Positions 11,387 to 39,319 of a stretch of DNA of 64,000 nucleotides are shown in pieces (position 1 is the stretch's first letter; the number at the start of each line of letters is the position of its first letter). The notes under the pieces are model-generated. The model saw only the letters and a list, made by a program, of their open reading frames with translations. It was not told where the DNA came from and did no database searches. The DNA is from Pseudomonadota bacterium. Lineage in GTDB: Bacteria > Pseudomonadota > Alphaproteobacteria > GCA-2731375. Both the position numbers and the translations under genes were made by a program. The DNA lies in NCBI GenBank assembly GCA_027623205.1, contig JAQBYC010000005.1:310-64309 (forward strand). The letters run 5' to 3'.

Positions 11387-12412
11387 ATGAGCCCGACTAG
11401 TTCTGGAAGACCAAACCGGCCCGGCGGGCGCTATCAACCAAGGCCGCTGCTGACACCGGGTGGACAAATGCCAAGCCGGACCGGACCGCGGGCCGGCAGC
11501 GGCGGCAAAAAGGAAATCCTTTGCGCCTTTGGCGTCGATGTGGATGCGGTGGCCGGCTGGCTGGGCTCGTACGGCGGCGAGGACAGCCCTTGTGATATCT
11601 CGCGAGGGCTATTCTCTGGCGAGGTCGGGGTGCCGCGTCTGGTAAAATTGTTCGACCGCTATGACCTGCCCACGACCTGGTTCATCCCCGGCCATTCCAT
11701 CGAGACCTTTCCCGAGCAATGCAAACTGGTGGTCGATGCCGGACACGAGATCGGCATGCACGGCTATTCCCACGAAAACCCCATCGCCATGACGCCGGAA
11801 CAGGAAATCGCCATCATGGACAAATGCATCGATCTGATCGAGCGTTTGGCGAAGCGCCGGCCTACGGGCTATGTGGCGCCGTGGTGGGAGTTCAGCCCCG
11901 TGACCAACGAACTGCTGTTGCAGCGCGGCATCAAGTACGACCACAGCCTGATGAACGACGATTTCCATCCGTTTTATGTGCGCGTGGGCGATAGCTGGAC
12001 CCCGATCGACTATTCCAAACATCCGGACGCATGGATGACCCCCCTGGTGCGTGGCCAGGAAACCGATTTGATCGATATTCCCGGCAGTTGGTACTTGGAC
12101 GATCTGCCGCCGATGATGTTCATAAAATCCGCCCCGAACAGCTTTGGTTTCGTCAATCCACGGGATATCGAAGAGCTGTGGCGCGATCAGTTCGACTGGG
12201 TCTACCGCGAAAACGATTACGCCGTGTTCACCATGACCATCCATCCGGATGTTTCAGGCCGGCCACAGGTGTTGCTGATGCTGGAGCGGATTATCGAATA
12301 TATCACCTCACACGCCGGTGTGCGGTTCTGCACCTTTGATGAAATCGCCGACGATTTCCGCCAACGTTGCCCGCGCGAAGGCGCCGCCGCCGCCGTCACG
12401 GCGCCGGCTTAG
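11387..12412 (+). CDS. Polysaccharide deacetylase family protein (HP0310/PuuE-like CE4 metallohydrolase)
   Basis: [61 protein letters not shown]. Confidence 0.88.
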
Positions 12413-12421
12413 TCCCGTACC

Positions 12422-12745
12422 ATGTGTGCTTTGTGCGGTGTGCTGGGCGGGCGGGGCCATTGGACCGAAAGCGCGGCCGCGCCGGAGGCCTTTGCCTCCC
12501 GGGCGGAGGCCCATACACGGGCACGGGAGCGGCAGACCCGCACCCGGCTGGTGAACCGGGTCTTGAGCCATTATGGCTTGCGCCTGGGCGACTGGTCCGG
12601 TGGCAGCCATGTGTTGCGCGGCCCCACCGGGCGCACGGCGCTGGTCAATAACCTGTCCCAGATGTGGGCCGCCGCCGACGATCTGTGCCGCCAGGAATGC
12701 GATCCCCTGGACGAGCACTTGCTGCAGCATCTTAGGGGAAGCTGA
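12422..12745 (+). CDS. Small conserved hypothetical protein with N-terminal MCxxCG
   Basis: MCALCGVLGG..HW; 9 nt after the deacetylase and 3 nt before the CobW gene, so operonic. Confidence 0.7.
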   Translation: MCALCGVLGGRGHWTESAAAPEAFASRAEAHTRARERQTRTRLVNRVLSHYGLRLGDWSGGSHVLRGPTGRTALVNNLSQMWAAADDLCRQECDPLDEHLLQHLRGS

Positions 12746-12748
12746 GAG

Positions 12749-13810
12749 GTGGGCGCATTCTCCGAACAGACGCCGATCAACGTCATTACCGGCTTTTTGG
12801 GCAGCGGCAAGACGACCCTGTTGAAGGGTCTGCTGGCGGCCCCCGATCTGTCGGATACGGCGGTCCTGATCAACGAGTTCGGGGCCGTGGGTCTGGATCA
12901 CGAGTTGGTGCAGACTGTCGCGGAAAGTACCCTGCTGCTGGACAACGGCTGCCTCTGTTGCGCCATTCGCGGTGACCTGCAAGGCGCCTTGCGTGGCCTG
13001 CTCTCGCAACGGCAAGGGGGCCAGGTGCCCAATTTCCGGCGTGTGGTGATCGAAACCTCGGGTCTGGCAGACCCCGCGCCCATCGCCTACACCTTGTTGG
13101 CGGAACCGGTGCTGCAGCATCATTTCCGCCTGGGGGGCATCATTACAACGGTGGATGCGGTCAACGGCGGGGGGCAATTGCAACGCTTCCCCGAATCGGT
13201 AAAACAGGCGGCCGTGGCCGACCGCCTGATTGTGACCAAGACCGACCTGGCCGAACCGGAGCAGCTTGCGGCCCTGTACACCAGTCTGCGCCGCCTGAAC
13301 AAATCCGCCCCGATCGTGGAGATAGGCGACGGCGACATCCAGCCCGCCACGTTGTTAACCGATGATATGTATGACGCAGGGGGCCGGGACCGGGAAATCA
13401 GCCAATGGCTGGCGGCATATACGGCCGAGGACGCCCTGAACCACGGGGGCGAGGCTGCCCTGATCCACGAGCACGCCGATCACGTTCATTCCTTTGCCCT
13501 GACCTACGCCAGCCCCCTGGACTGGACCGCCTTTGGCATCTGGATGACCATGCTGCTGCACCACCATGGCGACAACGTTTTGCGTATCAAGGGTTTATTG
13601 AACGTGGCCGGCGTGCCCACCCCGGTCCTGATCAACGGCGTGCAACATATCGTCCACCCGCCCGCCCACCTGCCGGCCTGGCCCGGCGAAGCGCGCCATT
13701 CCCGCATCATCTTCATTGTCAGGGATATGGCGCAGAGCCGGATAGAAGCCTCCCTCGCCGCCTTCAACAACCTGGCCAACCCCGACGCCGCGCCGGGCCA
13801 GGCGGCCTAA
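12749..13810 (+). CDS. CobW/COG0523 G3E GTPase metallochaperone
   Basis: ITGFLGSGKTT, INEFG, GCLCC, IETSGLADP, TKTD, LRIKG, C-terminal CobW_C region. Confidence 0.92.
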   Translation: MGAFSEQTPINVITGFLGSGKTTLLKGLLAAPDLSDTAVLINEFGAVGLDHELVQTVAESTLLLDNGCLCCAIRGDLQGALRGLLSQRQGGQVPNFRRVVIETSGLADPAPIAYTLLAEPVLQHHFRLGGIITTVDAVNGGGQLQRFPESVKQAAVADRLIVTKTDLAEPEQLAALYTSLRRLNKSAPIVEIGDGDIQPATLLTDDMYDAGGRDREISQWLAAYTAEDALNHGGEAALIHEHADHVHSFALTYASPLDWTAFGIWMTMLLHHHGDNVLRIKGLLNVAGVPTPVLINGVQHIVHPPAHLPAWPGEARHSRIIFIVRDMAQSRIEASLAAFNNLANPDAAPGQAA

Positions 13811-37802: not shown

Positions 37803-37932
37803 GAAACACCCCGTGCCCCCTATTTCACGCTACCGCAAAGACTTCTGATTATGCCGATGCATCTAGTCCGCGCATCGTCTCCAGATAATCCAATACATCT
37901 TCCACACTGACAACCAAGCCCGATCCTAAATT

Positions 37933-38607
37933 TTACGTTCGCAGCGTTACGCCGAAGCGGTCCTTGAAGGCCCGGCGCAACGCATCAAACCGCACGCCGA
38001 CCCGAATCACGGAAAAATCGCGGAAATCTACGATAGTCGAAGATCGACCCTGATGGTTGGCATATTGCGACAGGCCGTAATCGAAGGCGATGTCGGCGGC
38101 GGCGCGGACGACATCATCAATATCTTCCAGGCGGTACTTGCTGCCTGAAAGAGACAGATTGGCCGACGAACCGAACACCGGCATCTCCCGCTCCCACGAC
38201 TCATGGGCGATCACGTCGTGCAAGTGCCCGGCGTTCAGCAGCATATCCAGGGTCCCCGCCTTGGACGAGGATTGCAGTACGAAGGGATCGACATTTTGCA
38301 GAACGGGATGCGCCTCGCGAAACGGCGCCACCACGGAAAACGGCAACCCCACCGCCTCGACCATTTCCCGCACCATGGCGTGCTTTTCCTTTGCCATGAC
38401 ATGCAACTGCCGGCTCATGGCAAAATTCCCGAACATACCGCTTGGTTTTTCGTAACTGCGCTGCTTGGCATCGAAAATGCGGCGAACGCCCTGGGTCGTC
38501 GCGGCCAAAATGGCATAGGCCACGTCCAAGGGCGCAATCGCCACGCCGCCGTCGGCCAGGACATCCAGCAAGGCATTGGCGTCAGCCCGAACCCGTTGCG
38601 CGTTCAT
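37933..38607 (-). CDS. YrdC/Sua5-domain protein (divergent)
   Basis: GGVAIAPLDVAYAI, IFDAKQRSYEKP (KxR), GSSANLSLS (SxN), SSTIVD; ATG 38607. Confidence 0.75.
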   Translation of the reverse strand: MNAQRVRADANALLDVLADGGVAIAPLDVAYAILAATTQGVRRIFDAKQRSYEKPSGMFGNFAMSRQLHVMAKEKHAMVREMVEAVGLPFSVVAPFREAHPVLQNVDPFVLQSSSKAGTLDMLLNAGHLHDVIAHESWEREMPVFGSSANLSLSGSKYRLEDIDDVVRAAADIAFDYGLSQYANHQGRSSTIVDFRDFSVIRVGVRFDALRRAFKDRFGVTLRT

Positions 38608-38683
38608 CGGATCACCTGTGCGCCGCTCGTCCGGACTGGCCGGAACAATGGCTGTTTCCGCTTCAATGACCGGATTTTCCACC

Positions 38684-39319
38684 TTATTTGGTGCCGTACA
38701 GGCGGTCACCGGCGTCACCCAGGCCGGGCAGTATGTAGCCGATGTCGCTCAATTGCCGGTCGATGGCGGCGGTCAAAATGGGTACATCCGGATGAGCAGT
38801 GGCAAAGGCCTCGATCCCTTCCGGCGCCGCCACCAGGGCGACGAATTTGATCCGCCTGGCACCGGCCTCCTTCAGGCGGCTGACGGCGGCGGCCGCGGAA
38901 TTGCCCGTCGCCAGCATGGGATCCACCACGATCACCTGCCGCTCGCCGATGGAATGGGGCAGCTTCAGGTAATATTCCACCGCTTCCAGGGTATCGTGAT
39001 CCCGGTACATGCCGATATGGCCGACCCGGGCGGCGGGAATCAGATCAAGCATGCCCTCCAGCAAACCGTTGCCAGCGCGCAGGATCGACACCAGGCACAG
39101 TTTCTTGCCATCCAGAACCGGGGCCTCCATCGCCTCCAACGGCGTCTCGATCCGAACCTGTTTCAGGGCCAGATCGCGGGTCGCCTCGAATGCCAGCAGC
39201 AAGGCGATCTCGCGCAACAATTGCCGGAACGCCGCCGTTGATGTTTCGACCCGCCGCAGCAAGGTGAGTTTGTGCTGGATCAGCGGATGATCCGCAACCG
39301 TCACATTCGGTGCCGCCAT
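38684..39319 (-). CDS. upp: Uracil phosphoribosyltransferase
   Basis: [46 protein letters not shown]. Confidence 0.97.

Follow-up and report, generated by a model that had tools for sequence, protein, structure and literature searches.

A long flotillin conserved between a helix-tagged hydantoinase-type enzyme and an importer ATPase in a rare catabolic gene cluster of Alphaproteobacteria

The window analyzed here is a stretch of 64,000 nucleotides (nt), positions 310-64309 of contig C182 in the source genome (G000, an assembly of 5.0 Mb in 228 contigs), and our subject is a catabolic gene cluster within it, in which a long flotillin is encoded between the beta subunit of an ATP-dependent hydantoinase-type enzyme (HyuB) and the ATPase of an ATP-binding cassette (ABC) importer. 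Gene content was judged from a listing of open reading frames (ORFs) together with Pfam and NCBIfam scans, and the coordinates are collected in Table 1. The original prediction had described hyuA, hyuB, flotillin, ATPase, DAO, a Udh-like gene and an enolase as one tightly spaced run on the plus strand. This is what was found, the Udh-like gene being an NAD-epimerase/short-chain dehydrogenase (SDR): the spacing between successive genes is -4, 52, 23, 17, 13 and -4 nt, where the first value reflects a 4-nt overlap between the stop of hyuA and the start of hyuB. The names it had given to the surrounding genes (CE4, CobW, LLM, dihydropyrimidinase, GATase, crotonase, amidase, YrdC-like and upp) were recovered in the Pfam and NCBIfam scans, with the exception of the 'DehI-like' label, for which the match is below threshold (20.3 bits against a cut-off of 28.9). 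The three membrane proteins that it could not assign are real ORFs with 4, 4 and around 9-10 hydrophobic segments and without a match in Pfam or NCBIfam, and the NfeD partner that it had reported to be lacking is indeed lacking, with 0 NfeD matches in the 30 ORFs scanned (8967-42265).

Table 1. Features of the flotillin-containing cluster, in window coordinates (aa, amino acids; TM, transmembrane segments).
Feature	Position	Strand	Basis or remark
CE4 hydrolase, polysaccharide-deacetylase fold, weakly PuuE/allantoinase-like	11387-12412 (ORF opens 11255)	+	Polysacc_deac_1 61.9 bits
orf107, small protein	12422-12745	+	no Pfam/NCBIfam match; motifs kept in 25 orthologues
CobW/COG0523-type GTPase, metallochaperone family	12749-13810	+	cobW 148.5 bits, CobW_C 77.6 bits
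mem175, 4 TM, no known family, divergent from hyuA	13851-14378	-	4 hydrophobic segments
hyuA, alpha subunit, ATP-dependent hydantoinase/oxoprolinase/caprolactamase family	15613-17724	+	Pfam
hyuB, beta subunit with 178-aa N-terminal extension	17721-20012	+	Hydantoinase_B 495.5 bits
N-terminal helix motif of HyuB, aa 12-28, Ser-Leu-Asp-Asp-Leu-Leu...Phe-Asp-x-x-Phe	17754-17804	+	proposed docking/targeting peptide
Rad52/Mgm101-like core of HyuB, aa 58-139	17892-18137	+	two helices, three strands, long helix
long YqiK-type flotillin, 938 aa	20065-22881	+	Pfam Band_7
PotA-like ABC importer ATPase	22905-24014	+	ABC_tran 124.4 bits
DAO	24032-25312	+	Pfam
NAD-epimerase/SDR	25326-26159	+	Pfam
enolase-superfamily gene	26156-27340	+	Pfam
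two ABC importer permeases	27332-28159 and 28165-29145	-	BPD_transp_1 48 bits, first only
periplasmic solute-binding protein with Tat signal, distantly PotD/PotF/YdcS-like	29267-30589	-	SBP_bac_8 38.7 bits
dihydropyrimidinase/D-hydantoinase	30447-32216	+	TIGR02033 599.4 bits, above the equivalog cut-off of 393.25
mem157, 4-TM paralog of mem175	33878-34351	-	BLASTP 34% identity over 154 aa, E 4e-27
amidase-signature amidohydrolase, AtzE-like	35266-36708	-	Pfam Amidase 391.5 bits
mem365, polytopic, no known family	36705-37802	-	around 9-10 hydrophobic segments

The full-length flotillin was present in 18 of 20 genomes of the same genus, and three further genera of the family as well as two other families encode it at 67-80% identity; a tblastn search with all window proteins on the fetched neighbourhoods recovered one syntenic block. 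A sample of 401 genomes of the class was then searched with the flotillin as query (E <= 1e-20) and with a hidden Markov model (HMM) of the N-terminal extension of HyuB, to which we refer as the tag; flotillins with at least 48% identity and E <= 1e-150 were called members of the long subfamily. The flotillin query matched in 55 genomes, 18 with the long subfamily and 37 with ordinary flotillins (27-42% identity, N-terminal part only). The tag was matched in 19 genomes, including all 18 with the long flotillin and none of the 37 having ordinary flotillins only, and in each of the 18 the flotillin follows the tag on the same strand at a distance of around 2.3-2.4 kb. The nineteenth genome (G375) consists of 810 contigs, and its genes for an isochorismatase-family amidohydrolase, a small protein, CE4, orf107 and CobW are on a 17.5-kb contig that ends there. 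The positives within the class are spread over 11 GTDB families, and the syntenic cluster was found in two loci outside the class as well; in a phylum-wide sample of 400 other genomes the tag HMM matched none, which makes the system rare and its distribution patchy.

The 18 fetched neighbourhoods inventoried here exclude that of G000, and contig ends truncate several of them. All 18 contain HyuA, HyuB and the ATPase (the ATPase directly downstream of the flotillin each time), and 17 contain mem175. The usual companions were both permeases and the solute-binding protein (16 each), CE4 (15), orf107, CobW and mem157 (14 each), mem365 (13) and the dihydropyrimidinase (12); further genes were that of the isochorismatase family (12), the amidase (8) and the YrdC-like gene (5). 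DAO, SDR, GATase and crotonase were recovered once each, namely in the same-genus genome, and LLM, enolase and the DehI-like gene in none. Of the catabolic island that had been proposed, the conserved core and its companions hold up, and about half of the listed genes (LLM, DAO, Udh-like, enolase, GATase, crotonase and DehI-like, all 0-1 of 18) turn out to be genus-specific. The DAO-SDR-enolase stretch (24032-27340), which separates the ATPase from the permeases, is an insertion specific to the genus and was recovered in 2 of 22 metagenome loci.

The arrangement around the flotillin is equally constant in metagenomes, which were scanned with a flotillin alignment and from which the best 80 of 289 relatives were taken. 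HyuB was encoded directly upstream of the flotillin in 47/47 loci whose upstream flank extends 2.6 kb or more and in 17/17 where it extends 0.7-2.6 kb, the ATPase directly downstream in 70/70 loci whose downstream flank extends 0.7 kb or more, and mem175 was present in all 26 loci with a full upstream flank; flotillin identity among loci drops to 55%. A blind search, in which the contig scan was seeded only by seven free-standing relatives of the HyuB extension, led to 12 loci that all belong to the same cluster, seven of them reaching the flotillin within the fetched flank; they stem from metagenome-assembled genomes (MAGs) of Alphaproteobacteria and Rhodospirillaceae, one Acidiferrobacteraceae MAG and one unclassified proteobacterial MAG. 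The gene order is the same in all occurrences of the flotillin subfamily, with hyuA, hyuB, flotillin and ATPase co-directional, mem175 divergent upstream, and the permeases and solute-binding protein convergent downstream. The invariant core consists of mem175, HyuA, tagged HyuB, flotillin and the ABC ATPase. The joint occurrence to which the original prediction had pointed, of the long flotillin, the tagged HyuB and the membrane protein families encoded at 13851, 33878 and 36705, was observed and is syntenic, which favours a dedicated system.

HyuA and HyuB have the composition expected for the hydantoinase/oxoprolinase family: the full set of A-type domains is present in one subunit (Hydantoinase_A 314 bits, Hydant_A_N 170.6 bits, Hydant_A_C 43.6 bits) and Hydantoinase_B in the other, and the genes are adjacent. 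The caprolactamase equivalogs of NCBIfam were missed, with 515.6 bits for HyuA and 253.4 bits for HyuB against a cut-off of 1000 each. The Hydantoinase_B domain covers only amino acids 179-693 of HyuB (nt 18255-19799). The closest solved chains to HyuB are N-methylhydantoinase 7hk5 (253 bits) and the caprolactamase beta subunit 6yra_B (226 bits), and residues 1-177 remained unaligned in all five matching solved chains. In G000, 19 genes exceed the Pfam cut-off for Hydantoinase_B, which is an unusually high number of paralogs for a genome of 5 Mb. The extension HMM matched solely the flotillin-adjacent one and left the other 18 unmatched, and the second HyuAB pairs in three other genomes (G029, G022 and G025) are likewise without the helix motif. 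In one family (f73) the flotillin-adjacent HyuAB is just 37-42% identical to the window pair and the extension is still kept; judged by sequence, the tag therefore goes with the flotillin and not with the enzyme subtype.

The extension starts with the helix motif, which is followed by a low-complexity disordered linker, a Rad52-like core, an Ala/Gln-rich linker (aa 140-178) and then the enzyme. A phmmer search with HyuB aa 1-140 against 1.84 billion representatives gave 148 matches at E <= 1e-3, and 99 phmmer matches plus the query were aligned and scanned for families. Among these 100 sequences 31 carried Rad52_Rad22 (PF04098), six Mgm101p, one Sak and 15 Hydantoinase_B, and the 140-aa extension of the window itself matched 0 Pfam families at E <= 0.01, so that a direct Rad52_Rad22 match is lacking. 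An AlphaFold2 (AF2) model built on a 27-sequence alignment had a predicted local distance difference test (pLDDT) value of 85-98 over aa 61-140, with a helix predicted at 13-34 and a low-pLDDT linker after it. With this model human RAD52 and yeast Mgm101 ranked top in Foldseek (E ~1e-3), and an independent VIA search returned RAD52 with Z scores of 9.2 and 9.2, yeast Rad52 with 9.0 and Mgm101 with 8.8, as against 7.9 or less for double-stranded RNA-binding domains (dsRBDs). A profile search of PDB chain sequences with the extension yielded at best an unrelated amidase (E 0.94). The 'Rad52-like N-terminus' of the original prediction is thus borne out by the PF04098-bearing relatives, the Foldseek ranks and the VIA scores, and is right as a statement on fold and distant homology.

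As a constant feature the Rad52 ring domain did not survive, given that it is absent from the flotillin-adjacent HyuB in some lineages, where the short helix motif is always kept. In the metagenome loci the motif was found on all 47 flotillin-adjacent HyuBs (43 by HMM and 4 by inspection) and the core on 44 of them; the HyuBs of G212 and G105 consist of the helix and a long Pro/Ala linker before the enzyme, with no core. Second HyuB paralogs carrying the core minus the helix were seen with the core at the N-terminus in G185 (L040) and at the C-terminus in L030 (13096-15312, plus strand). Cores on second HyuBs are joined by Pro/Ala-rich linkers, one domain having been shuffled to either end of the enzyme. 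Because the core is optional and placed at either end and the helix stays across lineages, the helix with its flexible linker is what is constant, the Rad52-like core being a portable addition.

The helix motif has a second carrier. A helix-only HMM of 21 positions was run against 73,458 six-frame segments of G000 and matched HyuB (E 1e-7) and an ORF of 68 aa (E 1e-6) only, the next hit having E > 1. The small ORF is located on contig C221 (L036) at 1429-1635 on the minus strand, next to the gene of an isochorismatase-family hydrolase (1648-2403, minus strand) and near the contig end. Such a helix-only ORF follows the isochorismatase gene in G025, G088 and G285 too, and a free-standing protein of helix plus core (150-177 aa) is always encoded right after an isochorismatase-family amidohydrolase gene. 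The Pfam score of the amidohydrolase itself is 122-133 bits, and its resemblance to RutB or BiuH is weak. Elsewhere the pair of isochorismatase gene and small ORF is situated beside CE4 in the cluster; in the genus of the window it has moved away and an AMP-ligase gene is found instead. What is new here is that a short helix motif with a low-complexity linker is the universal element, the Rad52-like core being optional, and that this motif is common to HyuB and the small protein encoded after the isochorismatase-family amidohydrolase. A terminal helix on a linker, with two carriers in G000 and restricted to genomes having the flotillin subfamily, is by functional analogy comparable to a targeting peptide.

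Band_7/SPFH (PF01145; aa 33-180, 54.6 bits, cut-off 23.6) is the sole Pfam domain of the flotillin. It is preceded by a TM segment (aa 4-22) and then Lys-Arg, and given this single N-terminal helix and the positive-inside rule, the remainder of the protein is probably cytoplasmic. Past the SPFH domain follow around 600 residues of predicted helix and a conserved helical C-terminal domain (helices 197-797 and 809-936 in the AF2 secondary structure, a low-confidence model), with Glu (18%), Ala (15%) and Arg (12%) prominent in aa 196-800; the membrane anchor and long helical region of the SPFH/flotillin family are thus present, at low model confidence for the latter. The helical part shows periodicities of 29 and ~200 residues, and the 16 aligned orthologues, each with an intact frame, differ by insertions or deletions of 29 or 58 residues. 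Residues ~196-800 (20650-22450) comprise an internal duplication of ~200 residues and 29-residue repeat units of varying number. The lengths of database relatives cluster around 851, 909 and 938 aa, which looks as though an assembly were adjusted in height by steps. The public names of these relatives are 'YqiK', 'flotillin', 'SPFH domain-containing' and 'hypothetical' only. A search against PDB sequences gave 0 matches. The FloT equivalog NF058507 was not reached (34.1 bits against a cut-off of 700), and in terms of sequence the flotillin is a subfamily separate from FloT. It has the N-terminal membrane anchor, the SPFH domain and the long Glu/Ala-rich helical region in common with ordinary YqiK/FloT flotillins; however, members of the window subfamily are 818-942 aa long, whereas ordinary open frames in the class have ~535-780 aa, none of which matched the window flotillin C-terminal of residue ~570 at E <= 1e-20. 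The duplication of ~200 residues, the variable 29-residue units and the absence of an NfeD neighbour set the subfamily apart as well.

The transport genes correspond to a PotABCD-type importer, in that an ATPase, a BPD_transp_1 permease and an SBP_bac_8 protein are encoded together; the PotA equivalog was missed by the ATPase (340.5 bits, below the cut-off of 482). The second permease ORF has 6-7 hydrophobic segments and no Pfam match, and the solute-binding protein has a TAT_signal_seq match of 22.9 bits (cut-off 16.7). Database relatives of mem175 are clusters of 'hypothetical protein' only. We considered mem175 and mem157 as NfeD-like partners of the flotillin and rejected this, given the lack of a Pfam match and the fact that the hydrophobic segments fill almost their whole length and leave no room for an OB domain. 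Orthologous ORFs of mem365 have 352-499 aa; only aa 168-365 of mem365 are conserved, and its N-terminal half, of similar length in all the orthologous ORFs, has diverged beyond detection by tblastn.

CE4 is the first gene of a CE4-orf107-CobW operon and scores 79.5 bits against the PuuE domain of NCBIfam, far below the cut-off of 424.6. The intervening orf107 is highly conserved, always located between CE4 and CobW, and matches no described family; it has an N-terminal Met-Cys-x-x-Cys-Gly, a Gly-His-Trp a few residues on and a Cys-Asp-Pro-Leu near the C-terminus, and could possibly be a metal-binding partner of CobW and CE4. The ORF start of the dihydropyrimidinase at 30447 is probably too far upstream, with the true start near ORF aa 90-100. 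The amidase scores 353 bits against the AtzE family, below the cut-off of 461. A YrdC/Sua5-like protein (37933-38718, minus strand; 37 bits, cut-off 25), possibly an accessory that handles carbamoyl groups or ATP, recurs near the second HyuAB pair in G022, G025, G088, G097 and G324, sometimes in two copies. A flagellin gene (39502-40452, plus strand, with Flagellin_N and Flagellin_C) directly after upp marks the right-hand end of the catabolic region. An ORF of 330 aa that is antisense over the start of hyuA (15427-16419, minus strand) has no family match and was discarded as spurious, being almost certainly no gene. Promoter and terminator scans gave sites no more numerous than in shuffled sequence, among them one promoter-like site at 15516-15543, around 70 nt 5' of hyuA. 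The public sequencing runs that match the DNA include no RNA run; they are three DNA runs of aquatic metagenome from one study, one of which is possibly the source of the DNA.

The reading that we favour, at a probability of roughly 0.5, is that the cluster specifies a conserved, patchily distributed module in which a flotillin scaffolds the uptake and ring-opening of a small cyclic amide, with a ureide of the hydantoin or dihydropyrimidine type, or a lactam, as the most likely substrate. Oligomers of the flotillin would form an SPFH dome or scaffold that covers the ABC importer and the small 4-TM proteins from the cytoplasmic side of the membrane. To this assembly the helix motif would dock HyuAB and the amidohydrolase partner, by analogy with encapsulation or cargo-loading peptides, and the Rad52-like cores, where present, may multimerize the tagged proteins. 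The imported substrate would be opened at the expense of ATP and then de-carbamoylated at its point of entry. The enzyme set of the cluster comprises cyclic-amide hydrolases (CE4, dihydropyrimidinase and the second HyuAB pairs) and candidates for a ureido/carbamoyl amidohydrolase (the isochorismatase-family protein and the amidase). A more specific pathway, that of creatinine and N-methylhydantoin, was hinted at by the N-methylhydantoinase as best PDB match of HyuB, the isochorismatase-family amidohydrolase in the system and a DAO in the genus that resembles sarcosine oxidase in the NCBIfam scan. N-carbamoylsarcosine amidase is a member of the isochorismatase family. Considering the scores far below the equivalog cut-offs and the genus-specific DAO, this pathway was rejected and retained solely as a substrate lead. 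In a further-reaching form of the scheme the flotillin subfamily would be a membrane-attached compartment over its own importer, with enzymes loaded by a docking helix and Rad52-like rings serving as multivalent cargo hubs; this we regard as tentative and on balance doubtful, and an enzyme-holding cage or microdomain is purely something that we infer.

Several points weigh against the favoured reading. The scores of HyuA and HyuB fall far short of all NCBIfam equivalog cut-offs, and the identity of the substrate, like all protein contacts, is what we infer. With a muH of 0.42, a value reached by 5.2% of shuffles, the helix motif is amphipathic to a moderate degree only, and that of the 68-aa ORF is no better than shuffles; this borderline property was not relied on. 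The AF2 monomer model of the flotillin is poor (pLDDT 60, pTM 0.24), so that cage geometry cannot be argued from it. The counts given above show one tightly conserved block and not many independent origins, as kin are not independent, and since the system is so rare (0/400 phylum-wide), some of the synteny may be owed to the common ancestry of a single mobile cluster. Furthermore, genomic linkage cannot pick the receptor of the helix, which could be the flotillin, mem175/mem157, the transporter or HyuA. A complex prediction for the SPFH part (aa 28-215), the C-terminal part (aa 770-938) and the 140-aa extension, with a score of 0.00 and a mark of 0.32, is evidence neither way.

Bacterial flotillins are thought to stabilize or chaperone other membrane complexes. 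The flotillin of this cluster might serve the membrane parts only, stabilizing or chaperoning the importer and the 4-TM proteins, with helix and core building a soluble assembly of HyuAB and the amidohydrolase that never touches it. Such a metabolon fits equally well with a motif that is carried by candidates for two consecutive steps, HyuB and the small protein after the amidohydrolase, and it would agree with an ATPase gene that is co-directional with the flotillin and directly after it in all loci, and with a mem175 that is as invariant as the flotillin. It does not, however, account readily for the tagging of just the flotillin-adjacent one among 19 HyuB paralogs, nor for a tag that is missing from all 37 genomes with ordinary flotillins only and from flotillin-free ones except the fragmented G375; moreover, the flotillin gene is situated between hyuB and the ATPase and not beside the permeases. 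We consider a separate soluble assembly possible, yet unlikely on the whole.

That the flotillin is a mere passenger, inherited beside the enzymes as part of one mobile cluster and functionally unconnected with them, gains some ground from the rarity of the cluster (0/400 in the phylum sample), the non-independence of kin and the fact that the cluster may have spread as a single block. Against this, the order around the flotillin is kept while the CE4-orf107-CobW set, the dihydropyrimidinase and the amidase come and go and DAO-SDR-enolase was inserted; it has been kept at flotillin identities down to 55% and where the HyuAB pair was swapped for one that is 37-42% identical. Intergenic gaps of 52 and 23 nt and a coiled coil that varies by 29-residue units with the frame intact in 16/16 copies add to this, and make passenger status most improbable. 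The structural relatives of the core, namely RAD52, Mgm101, Sak and then dsRBDs, are all nucleic-acid binders, and no canonical regulator was seen among the conserved cluster genes, from which it could be argued that the Rad52-like (or dsRBD-like) domain binds nucleic acid and regulates, for example, the mRNA or DNA of its own operon. The cores are neutral to acidic, though, the net charge in 27 sequences having a median of -1; several lineages dispense with the core and retain the helix motif, its placement on Pro/Ala-rich linkers at either enzyme end is like that of a scaffold module, and the window domain is without a Pfam Rad52_Rad22 match of its own. A regulatory role is accordingly quite improbable, and scaffolding by the flotillin remains the reading that we prefer.

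The favoured reading has parallels in known systems. Like N-methylhydantoinase, caprolactamase CapAB and the acetone/acetophenone carboxylases, the window enzyme has the full domain sets of HyuA and HyuB; it differs from the N-methylhydantoinase/CapAB family in equivalog scores that are half or less of the cut-offs and in the N-terminal extension on HyuB. With the Rad52/Mgm101/Sak annealing proteins, for which the PDB titles of the Rad52/Mgm101 matches describe undecameric and lock-washer assemblies, the core has the fold and a transitive sequence link in common, but it aligns over only ~80 residues, is neutral to acidic, and is tied to catabolic enzymes outside any phage or recombination context. 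Bacterial microcompartments load enzymes by encapsulation peptides. These peptides, the cargo-loading peptides of encapsulins and vault docking elements resemble the tag in being a short terminal helix on a poorly conserved linker, common to more than one pathway enzyme and found only where a shell-type protein is encoded; in contrast to microcompartments and encapsulins, the candidate 'shell' would here be a membrane-attached SPFH protein, with no icosahedral capsid or microcompartment shell. The cargo-loading concept of encapsulins is a precedent for enzyme docking. SPFH assemblies around membrane proteins include one with a urea transporter (PMC12407830). As in those complexes (PMC12407830; HflK/C-FtsH), an SPFH oligomer would be combined with a specific membrane protein, the linked client here being the ABC importer; unlike them, the genetically linked partners of the window flotillin number among them an enzyme that is large, soluble and ATP-dependent and has a tag of its own. 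A search of the literature library found no paper that pairs flotillin or Rad52 with hydantoinase, and broader SPFH/flotillin searches listed nothing of this kind, one flotillin paper mentioning oxoprolinase in its reference list only.

For a Rad52-type fold to serve catabolic enzymes as a scaffold unrelated to DNA would be unusual in itself. The roles and clients of bacterial flotillins are still largely open, and this cluster offers an obvious candidate client. A portable tag that appears only with this flotillin makes the vague question of the 'microdomain scaffold' experimentally tractable, and if the tag docks to the flotillin, it would be a new genetically encodable means of placing enzymes at a membrane transporter. 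Should the SPFH compartment prove true, this would be the first bacterial flotillin with a defined enzymatic client and an SPFH-based metabolic organelle, and thereby a third type of bacterial cargo-loading compartment besides microcompartments and encapsulins.

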